Source: Escherichia coli
GTDB lineage: Bacteria > Pseudomonadota > Gammaproteobacteria > Enterobacterales > Enterobacteriaceae
Length of the DNA stretch: 64,000 nucleotides
NCBI RefSeq assembly: GCF_965641715.1
Contig: NZ_OZ282453.1
Direction: 5' to 3' (one strand)
The position numbers were made by a program, and so were the translations under genes. Below, in pieces: positions 5,533-64,000 of this stretch. The notes under the pieces are model-generated. The model was not told the DNA's origin. It ran no database searches and saw only the letters and a list, made by a program, of their open reading frames with translations. Each line of letters opens with the position of its first letter. The stretch's first letter is position 1.

Positions 5533-5571
5533 CAGTGTATTGGTAGCTAAAAAGCCAGGGGCGGTAGCGTG
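5533..5571 (+). promoter_or_regulatory. JUMPStart element with ops site (RfaH-dependent antitermination) in the wza leader
   Basis: cagtgtattggtagctaaaaagccaggggcggtagcgtg contains the ops motif GGCGGTAGCGTG (5560-5571) on the coding strand, about 180 bp upstream of wza. Confidence 0.8.
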
Positions 5572-30002: not shown

Positions 30003-30041
30003 CAGTGCTCTGGTAGCTGTAAAGCCAGGGGCGGTAGCGTG
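30003..30041 (+). promoter_or_regulatory. JUMPStart element with ops site upstream of the O-antigen cluster
   Basis: cagtgctctggtagctgtaaagccaggggcggtagcgtg; ops GGCGGTAGCGTG at 30030-30041, about 75 bp upstream of the rmlB start. Confidence 0.8.
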
Positions 30042-30115: not shown

Positions 30116-31201
30116 GTGAAGATACTTGTTACTGGTGGCGCAGGATTTATTGGTTCTGCTGTAGTTCGTCACATTATAAATAATACGCAGGATAGTGTTG
30201 TTAATGTCGATAAATTAACGTACGCCGGAAACCTGGAATCACTTGCTGATGTTTCTGATTCTGAACGCTATATTTTTGAACATGCGGATATTTGCGATGC
30301 TGCTGCAATGGCACGGATTTTTGCTCAGCATCAGCCGGATGCAGTGATGCACTTGGCTGCTGAAAGCCATGTTGACCGTTCAATTACAGGTCCTGCGGCA
30401 TTTATTGAAACCAATATTGTTGGTACTTATGTCCTTTTGGAAGCCGCTCGCAATTACTGGTCTGCTCTTGATAGCGACAAGAAAAATAGCTTCCGTTTTC
30501 ATCATATTTCTACTGACGAAGTATATGGTGATTTGCCTCATCCTGACGAGGTAAATAATACAGAAGAATTACCCTTATTTACTGAGACAACAGCTTACGC
30601 GCCAAGCAGCCCTTATTCCGCATCCAAAGCATCCAGCGATCATTTAGTCCGCGCGTGGAAACGTACCTATGGTTTACCGACCATTGTGACTAATTGCTCT
30701 AACAATTATGGTCCTTATCATTTCCCGGAAAAATTGATTCCATTGGTTATTCTCAATGCTCTGGAAGGTAAAGCATTACCTATTTATGGTAAAGGGGATC
30801 AAATTCGCGACTGGCTGTATGTTGAAGATCATGCGCGTGCGTTATATACCGTCGTAACCGAAGGTAAAGCGGGTGAAACTTATAACATTGGTGGACACAA
30901 CGAAAAGAAAAACATCGATGTAGTGCTCACTATTTGTGATTTGTTAGATGAGATTGTCCCGAAAGAGAAATCTTACCGCGAGCAAATTACTTATGTTGCC
31001 GATCGTCCGGGACACGATCGCCGTTATGCGATTGATGCTGAGAACATTGGTCGCGAATTGGGATGGAAACCACAGGAAACGTTTGAGAGCGGGATTCGTA
31101 AAACGGTGGAATGGTACCTGTCCAATACAAAATGGGTTGATAATGTGAAAAGTGGTGCCTATCAATCGTGGATTGAACAGAACTATGAGGGCCGCCAGTA
31201 A
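30116..31201 (+). CDS. rmlB: dTDP-glucose 4,6-dehydratase
   Basis: 361 aa; GTG start; Rossmann motif TGGAGFIGS; conserved RmlB sequence. Confidence 0.95.
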
Positions 31202-32100
31202 TGAATATCCTCCTTTTTGGCAAAACAGGGCAGGTAGGTTGGGAACTACAGCGTGCTCTGGCACCTCTGGGTAATTTGATTGCTCTTGATGTTCACTCCA
31301 CTGATTACTGTGGTGATTTTAGTAATCCTGAAGGTGTAGCTGAAACCGTAAGAAGCATTCGGCCTGATATTATTGTCAACGCAGCCGCTCACACCGCAGT
31401 AGACAAAGCAGAATCAGAACCGAAGTTTGCACAATTACTTAACGCGACGAGTGTCGAAGCGATCGCGAAAGCAGCCAATGAAGTCGGCGCTTGGGTTATT
31501 CACTACTCTACTGACTACGTATTTCCGGGGACCGGTGAAATACCATGGCTGGAGACGGATGCAACCGCACCACTAAATGTTTACGGTGAAACCAAGTTAG
31601 CCGGAGAAAAGGCGTTACAGGAATATTGCGCGAAGCATCTTATTTTCCGGACCAGCTGGGTCTATGCAGGAAAAGGAAATAACTTCGCCAAAACGATGCT
31701 ACGTCTGGCAAAAGAGCGTGAAGAATTAGCGGTTATTAACGATCAGTTTGGTGCGCCAACAGGTGCTGAACTGCTGGCTGATTGTACAGCACATGCCATT
31801 CGTGTCGCACTGAATAAACCGGATGTCGCAGGCTTGTACCATTTGGTAGCCAGTGGTACCACAACCTGGTACGATTATGCTGCGCTGGTTTTTGAAGAGG
31901 CGCGCAAAGCAGGCATTCCCCTTGCACTCAACAAGCTCAACGCAGTACCAACAACTGCCTATCCTACACCAGCTCGTCGTCCACATAACTCTCGCCTTAA
32001 TACAGAAAAATTTCAGCAGAACTTTGCGCTTGTCTTGCCTGACTGGCAGGTTGGCGTGAAACGAATGCTTAACGAATTATTTACGACTACAGCAATTTAA
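31201..32100 (+). CDS. rmlD: dTDP-4-dehydrorhamnose reductase
   Basis: 299 aa; [20 protein letters not shown]; start overlaps the rmlB stop. Confidence 0.95.
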   Translation: MNILLFGKTGQVGWELQRALAPLGNLIALDVHSTDYCGDFSNPEGVAETVRSIRPDIIVNAAAHTAVDKAESEPKFAQLLNATSVEAIAKAANEVGAWVIHYSTDYVFPGTGEIPWLETDATAPLNVYGETKLAGEKALQEYCAKHLIFRTSWVYAGKGNNFAKTMLRLAKEREELAVINDQFGAPTGAELLADCTAHAIRVALNKPDVAGLYHLVASGTTTWYDYAALVFEEARKAGIPLALNKLNAVPTTAYPTPARRPHNSRLNTEKFQQNFALVLPDWQVGVKRMLNELFTTTAI

Positions 32101-32157: not shown

Positions 32158-33036
32158 ATGAAAACGCGTAAAGGTATTATTTTAGCGGGTGGTTCTGGTA
32201 CTCGTCTTTATCCTGTGACTATGGCTGTCAGTAAACAGCTGTTACCGATTTATGATAAACCGATGATCTATTACCCGCTTTCTACACTGATGTTAGCGGG
32301 TATTCGCGATATTTTGATTATCAGTACGCCACAGGATACTCCTCGTTTTCAACAACTGCTGGGTGACGGGAGCCAGTGGGGGCTAAATCTTCAGTACAAA
32401 GTGCAACCGAGTCCAGATGGTCTTGCGCAGGCATTTATCATCGGTGAAGAGTTTATTGGTGGTGATGATTGTGCTTTGGTTCTTGGTGATAATATCTTCT
32501 ACGGCCACGATCTGCCGAAGTTAATGGACGTAGCTGTTAACAAAGAAAGTGGTGCAACAGTATTTGCTTATCACGTTAATGATCCTGAACGTTATGGTGT
32601 CGTTGAGTTTGATAAAAACGGTACGGCAATTAGTCTGGAAGAAAAACCGTTACAACCAAAAAGTAATTATGCGGTAACCGGGCTTTATTTCTATGATAAC
32701 GACGTTGTCGAAATGGCGAAAAACCTTAAGCCTTCTGCCCGTGGTGAACTGGAAATTACCGATATTAACCGTATCTATATGGAGCAGGGGCGTTTATCCG
32801 TTGCCATGATGGGGCGTGGTTATGCATGGCTGGATACGGGGACACATCAGAGTCTTATTGAAGCAAGCAACTTCATTGCCACCATTGAAGAGCGCCAGGG
32901 ACTAAAGGTTTCCTGCCCAGAAGAAATTGCTTACCGTAAAGGGTTTATTGATGCAGAGCAGGTAAAAGCATTAGCTGAGCCGCTGAAAAAAAATGCTTAT
33001 GGCCAGTATCTGCTGAAAATGATTAAAGGTTATTAA
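32158..33036 (+). CDS. rmlA: Glucose-1-phosphate thymidylyltransferase
   Basis: 292 aa; [15 protein letters not shown] nucleotidyltransferase motif. Confidence 0.95.
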
Positions 33037-33040
33037 TAAA

Positions 33041-33592
33041 ATGAACGTAATTAAAACAAAAATTCCAGATGTACTGATTTTTGAACCGAAAGTTTTTAGT
33101 GATGAGCGTGGTTTCTTTTTCGAGAGCTTTAACCAGAAGATTTTTGAGGAAGCTGTAGGCCGCAAAGTTGAATTTGTTCAGGATAACCATTCGAAGTCTA
33201 GTAAAGGTGTTTTACGCGGGCTGCATTATCAGTTGGAACCTTATGCACAAGGAAAATTGGTGCGCTGCGTTGTCGGTGAAGTTTTTGACGTAGCTGTTGA
33301 TATTCGTAAATCGTCATCTACTTTTGGCAAATGGGTTGGGGTGAATTTATCTTCTGAGAATAAGCGGCAATTGTGGATTCCTGAGGGATTTGCACATGGT
33401 TTTTTAGTGCTGAGTGAAACGGCGGAGTTTGTTTATAAAACAACAAATTTTTATTCGTATCCACATGAGCGTAGTATTATATGGAGTGATTCTAATATAA
33501 ATATAAGTTGGCCGCTCCCAAATAGTATGATAAATCTTTCTAAAAAAGATAAGATGGCACCAAATTTAAACATGGAAAATAAAATAAGTTGA
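33041..33592 (+). CDS. rmlC: dTDP-4-dehydrorhamnose 3,5-epimerase
   Basis: 183 aa; cupin-type RmlC sequence (FFESFN...RGLHYQ...). Confidence 0.95.
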   Translation: MNVIKTKIPDVLIFEPKVFSDERGFFFESFNQKIFEEAVGRKVEFVQDNHSKSSKGVLRGLHYQLEPYAQGKLVRCVVGEVFDVAVDIRKSSSTFGKWVGVNLSSENKRQLWIPEGFAHGFLVLSETAEFVYKTTNFYSYPHERSIIWSDSNINISWPLPNSMINLSKKDKMAPNLNMENKIS

Positions 33593-34827
33593 AAAATTCA
33601 ATATTAACAAACATTTTTTCAATGTTCAGCATACAAGGTGTTAATTACATCATTCCTTTGGTGACAATTCCATATCTTGTTAGGGTTTTAGGGTTAGAGG
33701 TTTATGGTAAATATAGTATTATTTTGTCTGTGTTACAATATTTAGTGATAATTACTGATTATGGATTTAATTTGTCTGGAAGTAGGCAGATAGCATTAAG
33801 TCTAAATGATAAGAAAAAAATTTCAAAGATATTTTGTGCGATAATAATATGTAAGGTTATTATTGCTGCAATTTCATTCTTTTCTGTTTTCTTATTTATG
33901 GAATATAATGGTTCTTATAGCGCTTATGTTGAGTTATTTATAAGCGGAATGGGAATTGTTATAGGTACATCATTTTTCCCAGTATGGTTGTTTCAAGGGT
34001 ATGAACGCATGTATTGGATTGCTATCAGTAATTTATTTGCAAAAATTACCGGAGGCATCCTGATTTTTTTACTTGTCCACAATAACAGCGATCTTAATAT
34101 TGCTATTATTATTCAGAGTTGTACTTGTCTCATTTCTGCTGGGATTGCATTAACGACAGCAAGAATAGGGAAGTTTGTTTATTTTCTATGGCCTCCACTA
34201 TCCGAAATAAAAAAACAACTTAAACTGGGTTGGAATATTTTTTTATCGACATTTTTTAGTAGTATGTACACAACAAGCATACCATTGATACTTGGAGTTA
34301 ACGCCGGAGCGGAAGCAGTAGGCGTTTATAATTCCGCAGATAAACTCAAGCAAGCTCTGCAAGGAATAATAGGTCCTGTATCTCAAGCTATTTACCCGCG
34401 CTCAAGCCGTTTATTTTCGCACTCAATTAAGGATGGACTTTCCTTTGTAACAAAAGTCTCGATTTTCTTATGTTCATTTATGTTTCTATGCAGTGCAGTA
34501 GGTTTTTTTCTATCAGAATACATCGTTAATTTAGCCTTTGGTGCAGGACATGAGTCATCTGTTTCAGTATTAAAAATTATAATTTGGATACCATCAGTTG
34601 TTGCTGTTGCGAATATGTTAGGTGTTCAAATAATCTTACCTATGGGATTAACCAAAATCTTTGGCATGACTTATGTAGTTTTGGGAGGAATAGGATTAAT
34701 AATTATGTATGCCGCTTCATATTATGAGTCTTTCATTGGGGTGTCATATGCAGCGATATTAATAGAGATTATTATTACAGTAATCTTTTTGGCAGTTATT
34801 AAGAAGCGCATTAGAGGGAAAGAATGA
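33589..34827 (+). CDS. wzx: O-antigen flippase Wzx (PST family), serotype-specific
   Basis: About 400-aa AT-rich ORF encoding a polytopic membrane protein directly after rmlC. Start is ambiguous: TTG at 33589 (overlapping the rmlC stop) or ATG at 33622. Confidence 0.75.
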   Translation: MKNSILTNIFSMFSIQGVNYIIPLVTIPYLVRVLGLEVYGKYSIILSVLQYLVIITDYGFNLSGSRQIALSLNDKKKISKIFCAIIICKVIIAAISFFSVFLFMEYNGSYSAYVELFISGMGIVIGTSFFPVWLFQGYERMYWIAISNLFAKITGGILIFLLVHNNSDLNIAIIIQSCTCLISAGIALTTARIGKFVYFLWPPLSEIKKQLKLGWNIFLSTFFSSMYTTSIPLILGVNAGAEAVGVYNSADKLKQALQGIIGPVSQAIYPRSSRLFSHSIKDGLSFVTKVSIFLCSFMFLCSAVGFFLSEYIVNLAFGAGHESSVSVLKIIIWIPSVVAVANMLGVQIILPMGLTKIFGMTYVVLGGIGLIIMYAASYYESFIGVSYAAILIEIIITVIFLAVIKKRIRGKE

Positions 34828-35741
34828 TTTATATATCTGTATGTATACCGACAAAAAATAGGCTTGACTATTTGACAAAAACAGTTGAGTCTATTATCAA
34901 TGATAACGTTGATGTTCATGCATATGAAATAGTTATTGCAGATAATTCTGACGATGATTTAACAGAAAAGTATGCAAGAGAATTAATGGATAGTGGGTAT
35001 AATATCAAATATTATAAAAATCCACAAACTGGGTTTTACAACTCTATTCAAGCACTTCAGTTAGGTGATGGTGCATTTCTTAAGTTACATAATGATTACA
35101 CCAGCTTCAATAAAGGAGGTTTTAAAAAACTATTCGATCATGTAGTAAAAAATTATGACTCTCGAAATATGCTTTTCTTCACTAATGGAGCATTGGGGGC
35201 CGTATCGACAAAATATGAATGTACTTCATTTGATAAGTTTGTATTTAATGCAAGTTATTTGATTACTTGGAGTTCGTCATTTTCTATTTGGAAGGATGAC
35301 TTTATTGAATTGGAAACAAAACCTGATGATCTCAATGAGATGTTCCCTCACACCAGCCTTATTTTACAATCAAATAATAAAATATTCTCAATAGTAGATG
35401 AATCTATTTTTAAAAATATTAGTGTATCAAGAAAAGGGGGGTATAATATATTTTATAATTTTTGTGTGTTATTTTTGGATATGCTTGATATTGAAAAAAA
35501 GAAAGGCTTGTTGTCAGAAAAAACAATAAAAAAGGTAAAAAGAGATATGTATTATAAGTTTGTAATGGTTTGGTACTATCGGACAATTCAGAACAATAAA
35601 AGAAGATATACCTTTGATAACGAAAATGCGTATGAGAATATTAAAAAAGCATATGGATTTATAGGTTTTTCTGGTGTGTTTTTAGTAGCTAAAGCCAAAT
35701 ATTTCTTTGATAAAATATTTGGCTTTTTCGTTAAAAGTTAG
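34824..35741 (+). CDS. Glycosyltransferase family 2 (O-antigen)
   Basis: 305 aa; N-terminal GT2 signature ISVCIPTKNR...IVIADNSDDD; AT-rich; sugar specificity unknown. Confidence 0.75.
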   Translation: MIYISVCIPTKNRLDYLTKTVESIINDNVDVHAYEIVIADNSDDDLTEKYARELMDSGYNIKYYKNPQTGFYNSIQALQLGDGAFLKLHNDYTSFNKGGFKKLFDHVVKNYDSRNMLFFTNGALGAVSTKYECTSFDKFVFNASYLITWSSSFSIWKDDFIELETKPDDLNEMFPHTSLILQSNNKIFSIVDESIFKNISVSRKGGYNIFYNFCVLFLDMLDIEKKKGLLSEKTIKKVKRDMYYKFVMVWYYRTIQNNKRRYTFDNENAYENIKKAYGFIGFSGVFLVAKAKYFFDKIFGFFVKS

Positions 35742-35747
35742 TATGGA

Positions 35748-37064
35748 TTGAGCATGATTATGCAGTTAAGAACAAATATTTCTGGGAGGGTGGGGCTTTG
35801 GTTGATTTTATTTACCATTTTTGGGGGAGCTTATAAGACTGCATTTGGAACTATTAGTACATCATATATATCATTTGTCTGGGGTGGCTGGATTTTAATT
35901 ATATATATATATCATTCATATTATGTAAGACTTAATTTCTTATATAGGATTAGCAGAAGTTATTATCTATATGCATTTTTTATATCTGTGTTGTTAATAG
36001 TATCTCTTATACAATTCTCATTTTTCGGTATAGGTGATATGCTGAATATTGACTTACAACTAAAAAGAGTAATGCAGGCAATAGTATCATTTACATTTTT
36101 TGCTATAACTGCTGATTATATTATTAACAAATTGACTGTTAGGGATTTATTCTTAGGAATCATATATTTTCTGTTATTTATAACGTTGTTGTGTGTTATA
36201 CAATTATCAAATGATTCATTTAGAATATGGTATTTGAATCTTACTGCAATTGATGGATACTGGTATGAGTGGGCCCAGAAAAGTAATCGAGCGATTGGAT
36301 TAAAGGCTATGTCTATTTGGGATACATCAGTATCCTATTCATTCCTGTTATTTATAGCATTTGCTGCATACTTTCAATTAAAAAATAAAAATATTCTTCT
36401 ATATTTATTTGTAGCATTGGTTTTTCTATTGATTGTTATGAGTGGCAGGACTGGATTATTATTTTTTATTGTATTTTCCTGCCTTCTATCAATCAGGTAT
36501 AAAATTTATGGATTCATGTTTACATATGCAATAACTTCGGTTATCTGCATTTTTTTTATTATGCTTGTGAGTGAAAGTGAGACTGTTTTACGTGTAATAA
36601 ATTTTGCTTTTGAATTAATTATGAATATTATAAATGGGAAAATTGAAACAAACTCAACAGATGATCTTATTAATAATCACTTATTTATACCTCATTTAGA
36701 TAACATATTTTGGGGTGATAATATTTATATTGGTGATGGTGATGAAGTAATTTCAAAAATTGGCCGTTCATCTGACTCCGCATTTGTTATTAACTATGTT
36801 TCTAATGGAGTGATTGGTTTTTTCATAACATCTATTCTGGCCATCATTAATGGGAAAATGATATTTAGTTATTTTAATATTCACAATAAAAGTGTTTTTT
36901 ATTTTTTTGTTTTGCTTGTTTGTTTTTTTCTGTCATTTGGTTTGTATATAAAGGTATTGGTATATGTTAGTGCTACTTTGTTGAAAGCAATGATATTTAC
37001 AACTATATGTTTAAATCATATTTTTAAAAATAAAATAATAGTTCGGAAAACTTATGAGAAATGA
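35748..37064 (+). CDS. wzy: O-antigen polymerase Wzy (candidate)
   Basis: 438 aa, extremely hydrophobic with 10 or more predicted TM segments, rich in I/F/L/Y, no recognisable soluble domain; position between wzx and the transferases. Family call from membrane topology only. Confidence 0.65.
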   Translation: MSMIMQLRTNISGRVGLWLILFTIFGGAYKTAFGTISTSYISFVWGGWILIIYIYHSYYVRLNFLYRISRSYYLYAFFISVLLIVSLIQFSFFGIGDMLNIDLQLKRVMQAIVSFTFFAITADYIINKLTVRDLFLGIIYFLLFITLLCVIQLSNDSFRIWYLNLTAIDGYWYEWAQKSNRAIGLKAMSIWDTSVSYSFLLFIAFAAYFQLKNKNILLYLFVALVFLLIVMSGRTGLLFFIVFSCLLSIRYKIYGFMFTYAITSVICIFFIMLVSESETVLRVINFAFELIMNIINGKIETNSTDDLINNHLFIPHLDNIFWGDNIYIGDGDEVISKIGRSSDSAFVINYVSNGVIGFFITSILAIINGKMIFSYFNIHNKSVFYFFVLLVCFFLSFGLYIKVLVYVSATLLKAMIFTTICLNHIFKNKIIVRKTYEK

Positions 37065-37614
37065 GAAATTAATTATTTTAATTTTACGTGGTGGACCATC
37101 ATTCTATCGCAGACTCAGAAGTCGAATATATGCAATGATTTTCAATACTGAAAAGTTGACAATTGGTAGAAATGTTTCTCTGTCAGGCACGAACAATATT
37201 TACTTTGGACGTAACGTATTGGTTGGAAATCAATCATGGTTGGCGGCGATAAACTCGGGGAAAATAATTATTGGAGATAATGTATCATTAAGTCAAAATG
37301 TGCATATAGCTGCTAATCAATGCGTTAGAATAGGAAATGGTTGTTTGATAGGAAGCGATGTTTTAATAACAGATCACAATCATGGTTATGGCAGAGAACT
37401 AATATATGTTCCACCTAAAGAACGTAAGTTAATTATTAAAGGAAGCACTGAAATTGGTGAAAATTGTTGGTTGGGTGATAATGTGAAAATATTAAGTGGA
37501 GTTGTTTTAGGGAGCAATGTAGTTGTTGGTGCAAATTCTGTTGTAACACGGAGTTTTCCAGCTAACTGTATTATAGGTGGTATACCAGCAAAACTAATAA
37601 AAAAAATACAATGA
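37054..37614 (+). CDS. O-acetyltransferase, hexapeptide-repeat (maltose/galactoside acetyltransferase-like) family
   Basis: 186 aa; hexapeptide repeats and HNHGYG-like motif (IGDNVSLSQNVHIAANQ...ITDHNHGYG...IGENCWLGDNVKILSGVVLGSNVVVGANSVV); overlaps the wzy 3-prime end by 11 nt. Confidence 0.75.
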   Translation: MRNEKLIILILRGGPSFYRRLRSRIYAMIFNTEKLTIGRNVSLSGTNNIYFGRNVLVGNQSWLAAINSGKIIIGDNVSLSQNVHIAANQCVRIGNGCLIGSDVLITDHNHGYGRELIYVPPKERKLIIKGSTEIGENCWLGDNVKILSGVVLGSNVVVGANSVVTRSFPANCIIGGIPAKLIKKIQ

Positions 37615-37632
37615 TATAAGGGTAGTGTTTTT

Positions 37633-38562
37633 ATGACGGTAGATATTATTATAGCAACATATAATGGCGAAAAATACATAAGGGAACAAGTGGAGTCTAT
37701 ACTCAATCAAACATATAAGAATTTTCATTTATATATACGTGATGATGGTTCTACTGATAAGACAAAAGATATTATTTATGACTTGAAATGTTTAGACGAT
37801 AGAATTATTTTGATTGAAGATGATATTATTAATAATGGTGTTGGAGAAAACTTTAAAATACTATTAAAACATTGCTCCGCTGATTATGTTTTTATTGCGG
37901 ATCAGGATGATGTATGGGAAAAAAGTAAGATAGAAGAGCTGCTCTCTTTTGCTATAAAAAATTTACCTACAAACTCGCCAGGTATTGCATATGCCCCAGG
38001 ATATGTTGTTGATGAACATTTGTATTCATCAAAGTTAAAAATGACAAATACAGACAATAAAGTTAAAAGTCTTGGTGATATGATCTTAATGAATGGCGGA
38101 GTGCAAGGATGTGCAATGGTTATTAATCGATGTCTATATCAGATGGTTCTCCGTACCAATTTTTATTGGTATATGCATGATCAAGTATTAAGTCTTTATG
38201 CTATTTGTTTTGGTTATATATTGTTTTTACCTAAACCATTATTTAGATACCGGCAGCACTCTAATAATGTATTAGGATATAATTCAGGAGGGGTGAAGTT
38301 ATGGTTCAAAAAATATATCCGCTCCAGAAGGAATACTTTTTTAATTAACAAACATACAGATAAGTTGTTTTGTGATTTTTTTTCTAGTGAGTCGTTTAGA
38401 ATGAGAAAAAATCAACATGATTTTTTCTTTTCATATATGGGCTCCAGAAAAAATAAAGTTAAGTTTTTGTATTACATTATAACCAATAAAATATTTCTAC
38501 GTGGGAAGCTAACTAACGCTATTATTAAAACGTTGTTAGTTAAAGATATTGTTGAACGATGA
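37633..38562 (+). CDS. Glycosyltransferase family 2 (O-antigen)
   Basis: 309 aa; N-terminal IIIATYNGEKYI...YIRDDGSTD GT2 signature. Confidence 0.75.
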   Translation: MTVDIIIATYNGEKYIREQVESILNQTYKNFHLYIRDDGSTDKTKDIIYDLKCLDDRIILIEDDIINNGVGENFKILLKHCSADYVFIADQDDVWEKSKIEELLSFAIKNLPTNSPGIAYAPGYVVDEHLYSSKLKMTNTDNKVKSLGDMILMNGGVQGCAMVINRCLYQMVLRTNFYWYMHDQVLSLYAICFGYILFLPKPLFRYRQHSNNVLGYNSGGVKLWFKKYIRSRRNTFLINKHTDKLFCDFFSSESFRMRKNQHDFFFSYMGSRKNKVKFLYYIITNKIFLRGKLTNAIIKTLLVKDIVER

Positions 38563-38592
38563 GTTATTTATAATAAAATGGATGGTTGAATA

Positions 38593-39699
38593 ATGAATGT
38601 TGTTTTTTCGGCAAATACATCATGGTATTTATATAATTTTAGGCAAAATACCATAAGAAGGTGTATCAAAAAAGGGCACAGTGTTTATATCATTGCCCCT
38701 GAAGATGAATACACTGAAAAACTAGTAAGTCTTGGTGTTAAGAAATATAATCTATTTTTAAATGGAAGTTCACTAAATCCATTTGTTGATATTGTTAGTG
38801 TATTCCATTTGTTTTTACTTTATTTTTTTATTAAACCTGATGTTGTCTGTAATTTTACCCCGAAGTTAAATGTTTATAGCTCTCTCGTCTCATTTTTTTA
38901 TCCAAAGATTAAAGTCATAAATAACATATCGGGTTTAGGTTCTGCTTTTGTATCGAATAATATAAAGAAAAGTATGCTTCATATATTATACAAAATAACA
39001 CAGAGAAGAGCTGATATTATTTTTTTTCAAAATAATGATGATTTGTCTTATTTTTTAGAACATCGACTGGTTCAGGAAATAAAAACAAGATGCGTTATAG
39101 GTTCGGGAGTTGATATTAACAAATTTAAAGTAACAAAAATAGACAGAGAAAAATGTATAAAGTTTATACTTGTTGCTCGTCTGATTGAGCATAAAGGAAT
39201 TCGATTGTATGTTGAGGCTGCCAGACTTATAAAAAGTAAATATCCCTTTACACATTTTGCATTGCTGGGGCCTAGCATTGATTCACATCCATCATCAATT
39301 AATTTAGATGAGGTTCATAGATGGACTGAGTTGGGGTATATTGATTATCTTGGTCATTCAGATGATGTTGCAAATGTTATTGCTGATTTCGATTGTGTTG
39401 TACTACCTTCCTATTATCGTGAAGGTGTTCCCAAATCATTACTTGAGGCAGCTGCATCGGGTAAAATAATAATTACTACAAACACAGTAGGTTGTAGAGA
39501 CTCTGTCATTGAAAATGTTACTGGGTTTCTTTGTGAACCTCGCTCGTTAGAAAGCTTAATCGGAGCCTTGGAAAGAGTATTACAACTTAATGAGAATGAG
39601 TTTATTAATATGAAAATATCAGCAAGACATCTGGCTGAAGAAAAGTTTGATGAGAATATCAACATAAAAAAATATATTGATTCTATTGAAAACAAGTAG
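38593..39699 (+). CDS. Glycosyltransferase family 4 (O-antigen)
   Basis: 368 aa; C-terminal GT4 region REGVPKSLLEAAASGKIIITTNTVGCRDSV. Confidence 0.75.
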   Translation: MNVVFSANTSWYLYNFRQNTIRRCIKKGHSVYIIAPEDEYTEKLVSLGVKKYNLFLNGSSLNPFVDIVSVFHLFLLYFFIKPDVVCNFTPKLNVYSSLVSFFYPKIKVINNISGLGSAFVSNNIKKSMLHILYKITQRRADIIFFQNNDDLSYFLEHRLVQEIKTRCVIGSGVDINKFKVTKIDREKCIKFILVARLIEHKGIRLYVEAARLIKSKYPFTHFALLGPSIDSHPSSINLDEVHRWTELGYIDYLGHSDDVANVIADFDCVVLPSYYREGVPKSLLEAAASGKIIITTNTVGCRDSVIENVTGFLCEPRSLESLIGALERVLQLNENEFINMKISARHLAEEKFDENINIKKYIDSIENK

Positions 39700-39724
39700 T
39701 ATTTAATTCGATATAGGTTTATAC

Positions 39725-40783
39725 ATGAAGATATTTCTTTGCTCTCTCTATTATGAGTCAAAAAGAGTTACAGGTGCAAATAAACGGTTTGATTATTTTG
39801 GGAAATATCTTGCTAGAAATGAAGAAGTTTCGTTGACGGTTATTGTTCGTGATGGGGAGATACCGTCATGGGCAACTGATGCTATTGTTTTACCAAAATA
39901 TCAGTACTTGCCACCTTTATTTCGCAGAATTCTATATTGGTTGCATTTGTCAAAAATATTTTTTAAATGTGACAATATAATAATTAGTGATTTTATGCCG
40001 ATTCCGTTTATTCCTTTTAAAGGTAATGATAATTATTACCAGTTAGTTCATGACATCCGCAATTTTACCGATTACAATAGAGCTTTTTTTAAAAAAATGG
40101 CAAGTGTATTTCAAGGATATCAATGGCGCAAAACACAAAATATTCTCACAGTGAGTAATTTTACTAAATGGCAATTGATTAGATATTGTAATGTTAATGA
40201 GAATAAAATAAAAGTATCCTATAATGGAATTGAGCTTATTGAAAGGAACAAACTTGTAAGAGATATTGATTTTTTATATATAGCTACATTTGAAAAAAGA
40301 AAAAATCATGATAATTTAATAAAGGCTTTTTATTATTATGTTAATGAAATAAACACCAATGCGAAATTATATCTAATTGGTAGGGATTTAGGATATAAAA
40401 AGAGTATTTTAGAGCTTGTATCGTCGCTTCAGTTATCACAATCAGTGATTTTTATTGATTCTGTTAGCGAAAATGAGTTGAGTAGAATTTATGAAAGAAC
40501 TCATTGCTTTATCAGTCCTTCTCTCTATGAAGGATTTGGTATGCCGATTATTGAAGCGATGTACCATGGTTGTAATGTGGCTTGTAGTAACATTGATGTT
40601 TTCCGTGAAATAGCTCAGAATCATGCTTCGTACTTTGAACCGGATAATATTCATAGTATTATAGATGCAATGTGCCTTGCACGAGAGTATGAAAATAACA
40701 ATCCCGAAACTCTTCATTATGTAAATGTTAATTTTTCTTGGGATTCTATAACTGCTAAATTTTTAGAGGACGTTAGATATTAA
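39725..40783 (+). CDS. Glycosyltransferase family 4 (O-antigen; possibly a mannosyltransferase)
   Basis: 352 aa; GT4 EX7E region EGFGMPIIEAMYHGCNVACSNIDVFREI; lies immediately upstream of manC-manB. Confidence 0.7.
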   Translation: MKIFLCSLYYESKRVTGANKRFDYFGKYLARNEEVSLTVIVRDGEIPSWATDAIVLPKYQYLPPLFRRILYWLHLSKIFFKCDNIIISDFMPIPFIPFKGNDNYYQLVHDIRNFTDYNRAFFKKMASVFQGYQWRKTQNILTVSNFTKWQLIRYCNVNENKIKVSYNGIELIERNKLVRDIDFLYIATFEKRKNHDNLIKAFYYYVNEINTNAKLYLIGRDLGYKKSILELVSSLQLSQSVIFIDSVSENELSRIYERTHCFISPSLYEGFGMPIIEAMYHGCNVACSNIDVFREIAQNHASYFEPDNIHSIIDAMCLAREYENNNPETLHYVNVNFSWDSITAKFLEDVRY

Positions 40784-40784
40784 C

Positions 40785-42185
40785 ATGATTCAACCTGTAA
40801 TTATTGCTGGGGGCGTTGGTTCTAGATTATGGCCGCTTTCTAGGGAACAGTACCCAAAACAATTTCTTACATTATTAAATGATAAGAGTTTACTTCAAAA
40901 TACATTATTACGACTCAAAGATCTGCATCATTTACCTCCCATAATCGTATGCAACCATGAGCATAGATTTTTAGTCGCTGAACAATTAAGGATGGAATCT
41001 ATTAATGTTGGTGGAATTATTTTAGAACCTAAAGGAAAAAATACAGCTCCAGCTGTTGCCCTTTCAGCCTTTTTTGTAAATAGATGTGAGATAAACTTAG
41101 AGAAGGATCCTGTCTTATTAGTGTTAGCTGCGGATCATGTTATTGATGATACGGATGGATTTTTAGCTGCAATAAATAGTGCTTTACCTCTTGCGCAGAA
41201 CGGTATGTTAGTGACTTTTGGTGTTGTTCCTACTCATCCTGAAACAGGATATGGATATATCCAGACTGGCAAGAAAATAATAGATAATTCATTTGAAATT
41301 ATTGATTTTAAAGAAAAGCCATCATTAGAAAAAGCGCAGGAATATTTAGATAGTAAAAACTATTTATGGAATAGTGGTATGTTTATGTTTCGTGCGTCTA
41401 CTTATTTAAATGAGTTGAAAAAATTCAGATCTGATATTTATGATGCTTGCTTTGATGCCATGAATTCCTCAAGTTTTGATTTTGATTTTGTTCATGTAAA
41501 TAAAGAAAATTTTTCATTGTGCTTATCTGAATCAATCGATTATGCTGTCATGGAGCAAACAGATAAAGGTGTTGTTGTCCCCATTGATATAGGATGGAGT
41601 GACATTGGTTCGTGGTCAGCTCTTTGGGATGTTTGTAGTAAAGATACTAATAATAATGTTATTAAAGGGGATGTCATAGATCATGATTCTCATAATTGTT
41701 TTATCATCGCTGAGACATCCTTAGTTACTACTATTGGTCTTAATAATCTTATTATTATTCAAAGCAATGATTCACTACTTATTGCTGACCGTCATTCTTC
41801 CCAAATGGTGAAGAATATAGTTGACGAACTCAAGGAAAAAGAACGTCATGAATATTATTTCCATTCGGAGGGATATCGGCCTTGGGGAAAATATAAAACA
41901 ATTGATACCGGGGAAAACTATCAAGTAAAACGAATTACTGTGAGGCCTGGAGGGAAACTATCAATGCAAATACATTATCATCGTGCTGAACATTGGGTTA
42001 TTGTCTCTGGTACAGCAAGAGTTATAGTTGATGGCAATACCAAATTGCTTAGAGAGAATGAATCTATATACATTCCTCAGGGATGTATTCATAGTTTAGA
42101 AAATCCAGGAGAAACTCCTCTCGATATAATAGAGGTTCGCTCAGGTGTTTATCTTGAAGACGATGATGTTGTGCGCTTTCAATAG
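40785..42185 (+). CDS. manC: Mannose-1-phosphate guanylyltransferase (O-antigen copy)
   Basis: 466 aa; same domain order as cpsB ([14 protein letters not shown]...cupin) but AT-rich and divergent at DNA level. Confidence 0.9.
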
Positions 42186-42232
42186 TAGCTCTATTTTTTT
42201 TACAACAAACGTTTTGTTATAAAAATTATCAT

Positions 42233-43603
42233 ATGAAACAATTAACCTGCTTTAAAGCCTATGATATTCGCGGGAAATTAGGCGAAGAACTGAATGAAGA
42301 TATCGCCTGGCGTATTGGGCGCGCCTATGGCGAATTTCTCAAACCGAAAACCATTGTGTTAGGCGGTGATGTCCGCCTTACCAGCGAAACCTTAAAACTG
42401 GCGCTGGCGAAAGGTTTACAGGATGCGGGAGTCGACGTGCTGGATATTGGTATGTCCGGCACTGAAGAGATCTATTTCGCCACGTTCCATCTCGGCGTGG
42501 ATGGCGGCATTGAAGTTACCGCCAGCCATAATCCGATGGATTATAACGGCATGAAGCTGGTGCGCGAGGGGGCTCGCCCGATCAGCGGTGATACCGGACT
42601 GCGCGACGTCCAGCGTCTGGCAGAAGCCAACGACTTTCCTCCCGTCGATGAAACCAAACGCGGTCGCTATCAGCAAATCAATCTGCGTGACGCTTACGTT
42701 GATCACCTGTTCGGTTATATCAATGTCAAAAACCTCACGCCGCTCAAGCTGGTGATCAACTCCGGGAACGGCGCAGCGGGTCCGGTGGTGGACGCCATCG
42801 AAGCCCGCTTTAAAGCCCTCGGCGCACCTGTGGAATTAATCAAAGTACACAACATGCCGGATGGCAATTTCCCCAACGGTATTCCTAACCCGCTACTGCC
42901 GGAATGTCGCGACGATACTCGTAATGCGGTCATCAAACACGGCGCGGATATGGGCATTGCCTTTGATGGCGATTTTGACCGCTGCTTCCTGTTTGACGAA
43001 AAAGGGCAGTTTATTGAGGGCTACTACATTGTCGGCCTGTTGGCAGAAGCATTCCTCGAAAAAAATTCCGGCGCGAAGATCATCCACGATCCACGTCTCT
43101 CCTGGAACACCGTTGATGTGGTGACTGCCGCAGGCGGCACCCCGGTAATGTCGAAAACCGGACACGCCTTTATTAAAGAACGTATGCGCAAGGAAGACGC
43201 CATCTACGGTGGCGAAATGAGCGCCCACCATTACTTCCGTGATTTCGCTTACTGCGACAGCGGCATGATCCCGTGGCTGCTGGTCGCCGAACTGGTGTGC
43301 CTGAAAGGGAAAACGCTGGGCGAACTGGTACGCGACCGGATGGCAGCATTTCCGGCAAGCGGTGAGATCAACAGCAAACTGGCGGACCCCGTTGAGGCGA
43401 TTAACCGCGTGGAACAGCATTTTAGCCGTGAGGCTCTGGCGGTGGATCGCACCGATGGCATCAGCATGACCTTTGCCGACTGGCGCTTTAACCTGCGCAC
43501 CTCCAACACCGAACCGGTGGTGCGCCTGAATGTGGAATCGCGCGGTGATGTGCCGCTGATGGAAGAAAAAACAAAACTTATTCTTGAGTTACTGAGTAAG
43601 TAA
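42233..43603 (+). CDS. manB: Phosphomannomutase (O-antigen copy; mosaic with cpsG)
   Basis: 456 aa; codons 3 to about 444 are near-identical in DNA to cpsG (20109-21434), while the first two codons and the last 13 codons ([14 protein letters not shown]) are AT-rich and different. Confidence 0.95.
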
Positions 43604-46653: not shown

Positions 46654-47658
46654 TCAAACTTTATAGAAGTTACGATACCATTCTACAAAGTTCTTTACCC
46701 CCTCTTTAACTGACGTTTCAGGTTTGAATCCTATTACGTCATACAGTGCTTTTGTATCAGCACTGGTTTCCAGTACATCACCGGGTTGGAGAGGCATCAT
46801 ATTTTTGTTGGCTTCAATACCCAGAGCCTCTTCTAAGGCATTGATATAGTCCATCAACTCCACAGGCGAACTATTACCAATGTTATAGACACGATATGGT
46901 GCTGAACTTGTTGCAGGAGAGCCTGTTTCAACAGCCCACTGTGGATCTTTTTCTGGAATAACATCCTGTAAGCGAATAATAGCTTCGGCAATATCATCAA
47001 TATAAGTAAAGTCACGCTTCATTTTGCCGAAGTTGTAAACATCAATGCTTTTACCTCCCAACATGGCTTTAGTGAATTTAAATAATGCCATATCCGGACG
47101 TCCCCATGGACCATAAACCGTAAAGAAACGCAGCCCTGTGGTCGGTAAGCCATACAAATGAGAATACGTATGGGCCATGAGTTCATTCGCTTTTTTAGTT
47201 GCTGCATAAAGCGAAACAGGATGATCTACAGAGTCATCTGTGGAGAAAGGCATCTTGCGGTTCATGCCATAAACAGAACTGGAGGAAGCGTAAAGTAGAT
47301 GCTGAACACTATTATGGCGACATCCTTCCAGTATGTTCAGGAATCCAATCAGGTTTGCATCTGCATATGCATTGGGATTTTCAAGGGAGTAACGTACACC
47401 GGCTTGCGCAGCGAGGTTTATTACGCGTTCGAACTGCTCGTCTGCAAACAGTGCCGCCATTTTCTCACGATCAGCCAGGTCAATTTTATAAAAACTGAAG
47501 TTGTCGTGCTTGAGTAAATCAAGTCGTGCTTGTTTGAGGTTGACATCGTAATAATCATTTAAGTTGTCAATGCCTACAACCTGATGACCAGCTGCAAGAA
47601 GCCGTTTACTTACATAGAAACCGATAAAGCCAGCAGCTCCCGTAACCAGAAATTTCAT
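46654..47658 (-). CDS. gla: UDP-glucuronate 4-epimerase (NAD-dependent SDR; Gla/WbnF/CapI-like)
   Basis: 334 aa; MKFLVTGAAGFIGFYVSKRLL...YASSSSVYG...YAATKK; closely resembles UDP-GlcA 4-epimerases from memory; minus strand, opposite to flanking ugd and wzz. Confidence 0.8.
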   Translation of the reverse strand: MKFLVTGAAGFIGFYVSKRLLAAGHQVVGIDNLNDYYDVNLKQARLDLLKHDNFSFYKIDLADREKMAALFADEQFERVINLAAQAGVRYSLENPNAYADANLIGFLNILEGCRHNSVQHLLYASSSSVYGMNRKMPFSTDDSVDHPVSLYAATKKANELMAHTYSHLYGLPTTGLRFFTVYGPWGRPDMALFKFTKAMLGGKSIDVYNFGKMKRDFTYIDDIAEAIIRLQDVIPEKDPQWAVETGSPATSSAPYRVYNIGNSSPVELMDYINALEEALGIEANKNMMPLQPGDVLETSADTKALYDVIGFKPETSVKEGVKNFVEWYRNFYKV

Positions 47659-63188: not shown

Positions 63189-63396
63189 TAGGTTAAATCC
63201 GTTATTTCTGCTGTCTGCCAGAGTATCAAATATCACCGTGCTAATCAGCTTTAGCGCGATAATTTGACAGCGAGTGGCAACAGATCATGTCAGATAAAAA
63301 TGAGAGGGTAGTCACATTTTCTTGCACTTTATTCCAGCCAGTTCATAAGTATTTCCGTAAAAAGAACAGCTATTTGAAACTCCTGAGGGTTTGCTG

Positions 63397-64000
63397 TTGA
63401 AACGCCGTCTTATTATTGCTGCTTCTTTGTTCGTTTTTAACTTATCGTCTGGTTTTGCGGCGGAAAACATTCCTTTTTCACCTCAGCCTCCAGAGATTCA
63501 TGCCGGGTCCTGGGTACTGATGGATTACACCACCGGACAGATCCTCACCGCGGGTAATGAGCATCAACAGCGCAATCCCGCCAGCCTGACAAAGCTGATG
63601 ACGGGTTATGTCGTGGATCGCGCTATCGATAGTCATCGCATTACGCCAGACGATATTGTCACCGTGGGGCGCGATGCGTGGGCGAAAGATAATCCGGTGT
63701 TTGTCGGTTCTTCACTGATGTTTTTGAAAGAGGGCGATCGCGTATCGGTACGTGATTTAAGCCGTGGTTTAATTGTTGATTCCGGAAATGACGCTTGTGT
63801 TGCTCTGGCTGACTATATTGCCGGTGGGCAACGGCAGTTTGTTGAAATGATGAACAACTATGCCGAGAAGCTGCATCTCAAGGATACGCATTTTGAAACA
63901 GTGCATGGCCTGGATGCGCCAGGTCAGCATAGCTCGGCTTATGATTTAGCTGTGCTTTCTCGTGCTATCATCCACGGCGAGCCCGAGTTTTATCATATGT
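63397..64000 (+). CDS. dacD: D-alanyl-D-alanine carboxypeptidase (PBP6b), N-terminal part; 3-prime end outside the window
   Basis: TTG-initiated frame reading MKRRLIIAASLFVFNLSSGFAAENIPFSPQPPEIH... with active-site SLTKLM; not in the ORF track because it lacks a stop inside the window. Confidence 0.85.
   Translation, partial: MKRRLIIAASLFVFNLSSGFAAENIPFSPQPPEIHAGSWVLMDYTTGQILTAGNEHQQRNPASLTKLMTGYVVDRAIDSHRITPDDIVTVGRDAWAKDNPVFVGSSLMFLKEGDRVSVRDLSRGLIVDSGNDACVALADYIAGGQRQFVEMMNNYAEKLHLKDTHFETVHGLDAPGQHSSAYDLAVLSRAIIHGEPEFYHM

Follow-up and report, generated by a model that had tools for sequence, protein, structure and literature searches.

In Escherichia coli, translational coupling has been shown for four of five tested overlapping gene pairs (Huber et al. 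2019, PMC6728339), and removal of the Shine-Dalgarno (SD) sequence usually lowered reinitiation in overlapping pairs by 60-90% (PMC6728339). Coupled pairs of the "ATGA, -4" class (Huber et al. 2019, PMC6728339) are co-directional genes with a 4-nt stop/start overlap, as are genes of the O-antigen cassette described here, and their SD is typically located within the upstream gene, which is likewise the arrangement at the wzx/GT2 junction of the cassette. The rmlC/wzx junction differs from this class (PMC6728339), since it is TTGA and has no SD. An experimentally shown case of an SD-less start directly beside an upstream stop, to which coupling supplies the ribosomes, would be like wzx in mechanism only, without homology.

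For the flippase itself, the closest described counterparts are the Wzx proteins of the PF01943 PST family in galF-gnd O-antigen clusters. The wzx gene of the window (the whole stretch of 64,000 nucleotides that was analysed) resembles these in its strong Pfam match (183 bits), its position directly after rmlBDAC, its low G+C content and the ops element upstream. The subfamily studied here differs from them in that its start codon is often near-cognate, being TTG or GTG in 7 of 12 loci (the window included) and ATG in 5 of 12. Several named genera are represented among the loci with TTG or GTG.

The O-antigen cluster and its overlapping junctions

The cluster lies between galF and gnd and contains sugar-nucleotide genes, glycosyltransferases, wzx and a putative wzy, which is the Wzx/Wzy-dependent layout, and an ops/JUMPstart element is present upstream of the first gene. 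The relevant features are the following.

30030..30037, + strand: ops element of the JUMPstart region, GGCGGTAG, 79 nt before the rmlB start GTG 30116
30116..31201, + strand: rmlB (rfbB), GTG start; identical start codon in the NCBI annotation
33041..33592, + strand: rmlC (rfbC), dTDP-4-dehydrorhamnose 3,5-epimerase, stop TGA 33590-33592; PF00908, 252.7 bits
33589..33592, + strand: TTGA shared by the wzx start and the rmlC stop; not conserved in related loci
33589..34827, + strand: wzx, predicted O-antigen flippase, 412 aa, very probable TTG start; PF01943, homologue alignment, NCBI annotation WP_024194557.1 (identical start)
33622..33624, + strand: internal ATG (Met12), rejected alternative start that leads to the 401-aa database version; Leu in 104 of 120 homologues, no SD
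34824..34827, + strand: ATGA overlap of wzx (ends 34827) and GT2 (starts 34824); GAGGG at 34814-34818 is a good SD (-6.3 kcal/mol)
34824..35741, + strand: glycosyltransferase with N-terminal GT2 domain; PF00535, residues 5-76
35754..37064, + strand: putative Wzy polymerase, by position and a hydrophobic 436-aa product; UniProt names a 434-aa form Wzy
37054..37064, + strand: 11-nt overlap ATGAGAAATGA of wzy (ends 37064) and the acetyltransferase (starts 37054)
37054..37614, + strand: hexapeptide-repeat O-acetyltransferase, WbbJ-like; NF007240, 134 bits, below the cut-off of 243
63397..63399, + strand: dacD TTG start, matching the NCBI start; a second in-frame TTG is at 63391

Following established knowledge of O-antigen operons, we take the ops element to mark one RfaH-type operon transcript. 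The G+C content is 0.28-0.34 in 33000-42000, versus about 0.50-0.53 in the flanks, and this low value (28-34%) agrees with a foreign origin of the central region of the cluster. The gene identities given in an earlier, sequence-only reading of this DNA all hold (rmlC, Wzx flippase with PF01943 at 183 bits, GT2, putative Wzy and hexapeptide acetyltransferase). The coordinates are likewise correct for TTG 33589, with its 4-nt overlap of the rmlC stop, for the in-frame ATG 33622, and for the overlaps of 4 nt (wzx/GT2) and 11 nt (wzy/acetyltransferase); the non-ATG starts listed for rmlB (GTG 30116) and dacD (TTG 63397) both agree with the NCBI starts. In the homologous stretch of NZ_CP149565.1, non-ATG starts occur in exactly 3 of 58 annotated CDS (rfbB, the flippase and dacD). 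The putative Wzy has no Pfam or NCBIfam match, and its in-frame start candidates are TTG 35748, ATG 35754 (the NCBI annotation) and ATG 35760, the last of which fits the related loci better than the annotated ATG.

Stop/start overlaps occur at three junctions of the cassette (-4 nt for rmlC/wzx, -4 nt for wzx/GT2 and -11 nt for wzy/acetyltransferase). Five related cassettes were compared, three of them from named genera (Lelliottia, Edwardsiella and Proteus), and in all five the wzx/GT2 overlap is kept as ATGA or GTGA, and the 11-nt wzy/acetyltransferase overlap is present with the pattern ATGnnAnATGA. Inside the upstream gene, GT2 is preceded by a good SD (-6.3 kcal/mol) and the acetyltransferase by a weak one (-3.5), and for wzx the SD, at -3.3, is counted as absent. 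The sequence-only reading had regarded such overlaps as typical of horizontally acquired cassettes, and this claim did not survive comparison with other operons: the his operon of a near-identical strain, as annotated by NCBI, has 6 overlapping junctions and its colanic-acid cluster 4 (-4, -26, -4 and -4), versus 4 in the O-antigen cluster. Because the his and colanic-acid operons are just as rich in overlaps, such junctions are not a mark of horizontal acquisition, and we rejected them as evidence of horizontal transfer. Within the cassette family the 4- and 11-nt overlaps are old and conserved, and they are ordinary operon architecture. For GT2, which combines a good SD with the ATGA overlap, and for the acetyltransferase, which starts 11 nt inside wzy, the overlaps probably link the translation of the neighbouring genes; translational coupling in the cassette is plausible and a reasonable reading of the literature (PMC6728339).

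The start codon of wzx

The wzx reading frame opens at 33583, after TAA 33580-82, which leaves TTG 33589 as the one canonical start ahead of ATG 33622. The TTG (33589-33591) and the rmlC stop (TGA 33590-33592) overlap in the 4-nt sequence TTGA, and the ATG (33622-33624) is in frame with the TTG. As the sequence-only reading had noted, neither candidate has a clear SD: within the 20 nt upstream, the best anti-SD duplex is -3.3 kcal/mol for TTG 33589, where the 3' end of GGA lies 12 nt before the start, and +2.0 kcal/mol for ATG 33622. The baseline for these values is a median of -2.0 over all 20-nt windows in 33000-42000, 34% of which reach -3 or lower. Both codons lie in A/U-rich, unstructured mRNA, and a search for RNA structure masking the wzx start found none (z = -0.22).

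Comparison with homologues argues strongly that wzx starts at TTG 33589 and that its predicted product is a PST-type Wzx flippase of 412 residues. On this reading, ATG 33622 is the codon of Met12, within the first transmembrane segment. The start had earlier been called ambiguous, with orthologue alignment named as a check. Both candidates are real, and the databases hold 412-aa and 401-aa forms, but the ambiguity itself does not stand, the homologue alignment deciding for TTG 33589, one of the two codons originally proposed. Of the 11 related loci that were read, 8 begin wzx exactly at the position aligned to TTG 33589: the codon there is TTG in L004, L006, L007 and L008 (Edwardsiella tarda; NCBI annotation 412 aa for L008), GTG in L009 (Proteus) and L012 (Providencia), and ATG in L003 (Lelliottia) and L016. 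Locus L014 has ATG at the aligned position, plus another in-frame TTG five codons upstream, and L013 and L015 carry TTA at this position and begin at an ATG one codon further upstream.

The segment between the two candidates is conserved at the protein level. In ten loci, the sequence x-x-x-[IL]-[ILF]-[KT]-N-I-[FL]-[SA] is encoded before Met/Leu12. Over codons 2-11, the numbers of columns (out of 10) that vary at codon positions 1, 2 and 3 are 6, 3 and 10, and the distribution is alike in the 30 codons that follow (17, 7 and 28 of 30). The synonymous share of differing codon pairs is 40% in the wzx frame, versus 3% and 1% in the other two frames. Judged from these substitutions, the ten codons upstream of Met12 vary as coding DNA does. 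Of 120 homologues, 112 extend past the Met12 column on its upstream side by 6 residues or more; Asn8 is invariant (112 of 112), Ser11 is found in 104, and the Met12 column itself is Leu in 104 of the 120.

The PF01943 profile match (E = 1e-53, 183 bits, cut-off 28.2) aligns residues 6-275 with profile positions 2-273. By this profile the wzx product is a member of the Wzx / PST-family flippases, with flipping of the undecaprenyl-pyrophosphate-linked O unit over the inner membrane as its predicted function. The conserved N-terminal segment N-I-F-S-[LM]-x-x-x-Q-G-x-N-Y is contained in the product only if translation starts at TTG 33589. Among solved structures, the sole match is a teichoic-acid flippase fusion, which is aligned from query residue 9 and is therefore silent on the wzx N-terminus.

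Initiation at wzx and rival readings

TTG 33589 would make a weak start, being a UUG without an SD in A/U-rich, unstructured mRNA that shares UUGA with the rmlC stop, and Wzx may consequently be produced at a low level. The wzx start of L016 has a strong AAGGAGG, and 5 of 12 loci start with ATG, so not every member of the subfamily has a weak start. Poor ribosome-binding sites and low expression have reportedly long been associated with wzx-type genes, as Macpherson et al. are said to have described in 1995 for Shigella flexneri rfbX. Very low basal expression is a known trait of Wzy genes (PMC12004945). Initiation could follow either of two routes: ribosomes that have just translated rmlC may reinitiate in place (termination-reinitiation), or SD-less initiation may take place on the open, A-rich leader. 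Published E. coli tests, in which UUG without an SD was a poor reinitiation site, count against reinitiation at wzx. In all 10 related loci for which the rmlC end was read, a gap of 3 to 110 nt separates the rmlC stop from the wzx start; since the rmlC/wzx overlap is thus absent from every related locus read, reinitiation at the overlap cannot be a conserved mechanism.

It is quite possible, though at somewhat less than an even chance, that the start at TTG 33589 is independent of rmlC, with new ribosomes binding directly to the open, A-rich leader and with an incidental 4-nt overlap. The related loci keep the start position without the overlap, the C-terminal tail of RmlC is variable in length and sequence, and no structure masks the wzx start, all of which would fit this reading; however, gaps as short as these still permit coupling according to two reports (PMC10666635, PMC12548453), and an SD-less UUG serves fresh initiation poorly in E. 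coli. This alternative differs from the best explanation only in the mode of initiation, and the gene start is the same in both.

With respect to reinitiation from rmlC, the near-cognate and mostly SD-less start of this Wzx subfamily may have been selected as a throttle on the flippase level, the rmlC-proximal position supplying the ribosomes, but we regard this as rather unlikely.

Use of both starts, which would yield full-length Wzx and an N-terminally shortened form, is very improbable. The shortened protein would be without the invariant Asn8 and the N-terminal Lys, and the internal Met has no SD and is not conserved, even though the mRNA at both codons is A/U-rich and unstructured, a setting in which SD-independent initiation can occur; because the internal Met is Leu in 104 of 120 homologues, a second Wzx isoform cannot be a family feature. 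The weakest reading, in which wzx begins at ATG 33622 (401 aa) and the 33 nt upstream are an untranslated spacer that is open by chance, has in its favour that ATG is the preferred start codon and is used here by Prodigal-type gene callers and database entries (P0001, P0122 (401 aa, 248 contigs); UniProt A0A510B230_SHIDY), but it is extremely unlikely and was rejected in view of the protein-level conservation, with synonymous changes, of the 10 upstream codons in six or more named genera, of the invariant Asn8 and of Leu at the Met12 column, and the ATG is also without any SD (+2.0 kcal/mol) and the Pfam profile covers residues 6-11. In L015, the caller picked an internal Met despite an upstream ATG, which points to a systematic gene-caller artefact.

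Reference annotation and practical meaning

The RefSeq cassette of E. coli 1504D004 (NZ_CP149565.1; flippase WP_024194557.1) is 100% identical in DNA over 33000-38600, and NZ_CP149565.1 has the same starts for wzx (TTG), GT2, the acetyltransferase, rfbB (GTG) and dacD (TTG). The window is collinear with NZ_CP149565.1 only from ~24.7 to 47.7 kb, and dacD was therefore mapped by sequence. The NCBI annotation pipeline and RefSeq already use the TTG 33589 start and annotate the overlaps alike. As to the serogroup, no serogroup-specific NCBIfam model matched, and literature look-ups gave no name. The only names found for cluster members in UniProt are "Shigella dysenteriae" and "Wzy", and the cluster is common to a Shigella dysenteriae type; the serogroup might be S. 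dysenteriae type 5 / O58.

The wzx start and the overlaps show nothing beyond normal bacterial operons and are an ordinary annotation detail. The result raises no new biological question, and its value is practical. It provides an example of a systematic gene-caller error, in which an internal ATG is preferred over an SD-less TTG start. Two versions of the flippase are present in public databases, one of 412 aa and an N-terminally truncated one of 401 aa without the invariant Asn, and the evidence favours the 412-aa version; the correct version matters for cloning, expression and wzx-based molecular O-typing.

The O-antigen cluster and its surroundings

The window is a piece of E. coli chromosome whose genes run udk-asmA, colanic-acid (wca) cluster, galF, O-antigen cluster, gnd, ugd, wzzB, his operon, sbcB and dacD. 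The O-antigen cluster matches a standard Wzx/Wzy-dependent O-antigen operon in every respect examined and, going by UniProt names, is common to a Shigella dysenteriae type. Its genes, and the ops elements, are:

5560-5567, + strand, ops element GGCGGTAG ahead of the colanic-acid (wza) operon
30030-30037, + strand, ops element GGCGGTAG ahead of the O-antigen (rmlB) operon
30116-31201, rmlB
31201-32100, rmlD
32158-33036, rmlA
33041-33592, rmlC (stop 33590-33592)
33589-34827, wzx
34824-35741, GT2-domain protein
ending at 37064, putative wzy
37054-37614, hexapeptide acetyltransferase
downstream of the acetyltransferase, a second GT2, two GT4 glycosyltransferases, manC and manB

The ops sequence has four matches in the window, versus 1.4 expected by chance, and G+C drops to 0.28-0.34 across 33000-42000. 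Over 33000-38600 the window matches E. coli 1504D004 (NZ_CP149565.1) with 100% identity; of 5426 complete E. coli genomes, just 6 carry this segment with at least 80% coverage. Collinearity with NZ_CP149565.1 is limited to about 24.7-47.7 kb, and the first 24 kb find their best match (98.6% identical) in a different strain; the same O-antigen cassette therefore occurs in more than one chromosomal background (from pig and human isolates).

In the manC/manB region (40785-43603), G+C changes from about 0.34 to 0.49, with the junction near 42000-42230; manB, annotated as cpsG by NCBI, reaches 1044 bits against the CpsG model. It resembles a high-G+C copy of the colanic-acid type fused to a low-G+C manC, which would make this a recombination junction at the cassette edge. 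Between ugd and wzzB, on the opposite strand (46654-47658, - strand), lies a gene for an NAD-dependent sugar epimerase similar to GalE and TviC, which scores below all equivalog cut-offs and may provide this O antigen with an extra sugar, e.g., a uronic acid epimer. In a second E. coli copy of the whole cassette (strain ES5, NZ_CP133871.1; 99.6% identical), NCBI annotates the flippase with an internal stop, manC with a frameshift, and GT2, wzy and the acetyltransferase with shortened coding sequences; the probable cause is homopolymer error in the sequencing of AT-rich DNA, not true pseudogene formation.

Start codons of wzx and other genes

The sequence-only reading left wzx with two possible starts, and all of its coordinates are correct: TTG 33589-33591 shares TTGA with the rmlC stop, and ATG 33622-33624 is in frame. 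Because the frame is closed just upstream by TAA 33580-33582, the TTG is the sole canonical start ahead of the ATG. Calculated over the 20 nt preceding each start, the duplex with the 16S rRNA 3' tail is worth -3.3 kcal/mol for the TTG (just a GGA, ending 12 nt ahead of it) and +2.0 kcal/mol for the ATG, against a local background with a median of -2.0 and 34% of windows at -3 or lower; a clear Shine-Dalgarno sequence is thus missing from both candidates, as had been proposed.

Alignment of orthologues, which that reading had named as a check, places the start at TTG 33589. A search of a large protein collection found 1450 homologues, and among the best 120 of these (aligned with MAFFT), 112 have at least six residues upstream of the column of Met12, the residue encoded by ATG 33622 in numbering from the TTG. 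Leu occupies this column in 104 homologues and Met in just 15, while Asn8 is invariant in the 112 homologues covering its column and Ser11 is found in 104. The cluster representative 100% identical to Wzx has 401 aa, the length given by the ATG, and homologues at 57-67% identity have 412 aa, the length given by the TTG, with the N-terminus M-[ED]-[KR]-x-[IL]-[LI]-K-N-I-F-S-M-F-S-I-Q-G.

At the DNA level, eleven related loci were compared. At the position of TTG 33589, L004, L006, L007 and L008 (Edwardsiella tarda) also have TTG, L009 (Proteus mirabilis) and L012 (Providencia) have GTG, and L003 (Lelliottia aquatilis), L014 (Aeromonas) and L016 have ATG; L013 (Pantoea) and L015 have TTA there and start at an ATG one codon 5' of it. 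For L004, L006 and L007 the gene caller picked the internal ATG, but the conserved peptide is nonetheless encoded upstream after the TTG, and the frame is shut 1 to 3 codons above it. Variation across codons 2-11 (6, 3 and 10 of 10 columns variable at codon positions 1, 2 and 3) has the same coding signature as in the following 30 codons (17, 7 and 28 of 30), and of the codon pairs that differ, 40% are synonymous in the wzx frame, versus 3% and 1% in the other two. The Pfam PF01943 alignment begins at residue 6. Together, the starts of related loci, the homologue N-termini, the coding-type variation and the Pfam match argue that wzx starts at TTG 33589.

Databases hold both versions of the protein, with 412 aa on 214 contigs and 401 aa on 248, the latter including UniProt A0A510B230_SHIDY. 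In L015 (621-657) the caller took an internal Met despite an upstream in-frame ATG encoding the conserved MLDKKLFKNIFS peptide, which suggests that N-terminal truncation in this Wzx subfamily is a recurrent caller artefact, and more than a TTG problem.

The non-ATG starts reported for rmlB (GTG 30116) and dacD (TTG 63397, the NCBI start mapped onto the window) also hold, and exactly three of the 58 annotated coding sequences in the homologous NZ_CP149565.1 stretch have such starts (rfbB, flippase and dacD). Two codons 5' of this dacD start, at 63391, is another in-frame TTG; GAGG 63385-63388 lies 8 nt from TTG 63397 and 2 nt from TTG 63391, a spacing that favours the former. The wzy start is ambiguous too, with three in-frame candidates within 12 nt (35748-35762):

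TTG 35748
ATG 35754, NCBI annotation, 436 aa
ATG 35760, 434-aa form, UniProt A0A510B225_SHIDY

ATG 35760 is the candidate matched in alignment by the "MQ..." starts of the relatives in Lelliottia and L004, and 12 nt 5' of it there is a conserved TTGAGC.

Gene overlaps

The wzx/GT2 overlap is indeed 4 nt (ATGA, 34824-34827) and that of wzy and the acetyltransferase 11 nt (37054-37064). The GT2 start has, besides the overlap, GAGGG five nt ahead of its ATG (-6.3 kcal/mol), and the acetyltransferase start just an upstream GGA (-3.5). The five related cassettes for which the data are complete all keep the first overlap, as ATGA or GTGA, and likewise the second, as ATGnnAnATGA; in the second, the TGA that ends wzy is made from the codons for Asn and Glu in M-[RK]-[NH]-E, the conserved N-terminus of the acetyltransferase. 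Both overlaps thus appear ancestral to the cassette family and not a by-product of arrival in E. coli, and the 11-nt overlap appears constrained in both reading frames. A 7-nt tandem duplication, ATGAGAA ATGAGAA (37054-37067), forms this overlap.

That such overlaps are typical of horizontally acquired cassettes was not borne out. They match the usual overlapping gene pairs of bacterial operons, and in the NCBI annotation of the near-identical strain there are six in the his operon (-7, -19, -1, -1, -1, -4), four in the colanic-acid cluster (-4, -26, -4, -4), one at yoeI/plaP (-11) and four in the O-antigen cluster (-1, -4, -4, -11); we therefore reject them as a marker of foreign DNA.

Probable initiation and expression of wzx

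The wzx start is weak: a UUG, without a Shine-Dalgarno sequence, in A/U-rich mRNA, where significant RNA structure was looked for and not found (z = -0.22). Ribosomes that finish rmlC would be the likeliest source of initiation, since the rmlC stop and the wzx start have UUGA in common. Published experiments found coupling in four of five overlapping E. coli gene pairs; on removal of the Shine-Dalgarno sequence, three pairs lost 60-90% of their reinitiation and one lost all of it (PMC6728339). Given such losses, wzx output should be low. Shigella rfbX has very low expression, with which a low output would fit. It would also fit the very low expression described for neighbouring polymerase genes (PMC12004945).

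This reinitiation reading is limited by the related loci. Where the rmlC end was read, its stop lies 3 to 110 nt upstream of the wzx start, with overlap in 0 of 10, so that the overlap seems to be a local accident of a variable RmlC tail; and ATG is used in 5 of 12 loci (window included), with AAGGAGG in L016, so that a weak wzx start is common, not universal. Initiation independent of rmlC, on the open A-rich leader, is a serious rival as regards mechanism but leaves the start position unchanged.

The correct wzx start is already carried by RefSeq (TTG 33589, WP_024194557.1). Near-cognate starts are frequent in this Wzx subfamily and may reflect selection for low flippase levels, a reading that the 12 related loci do not distinguish from plain inheritance.
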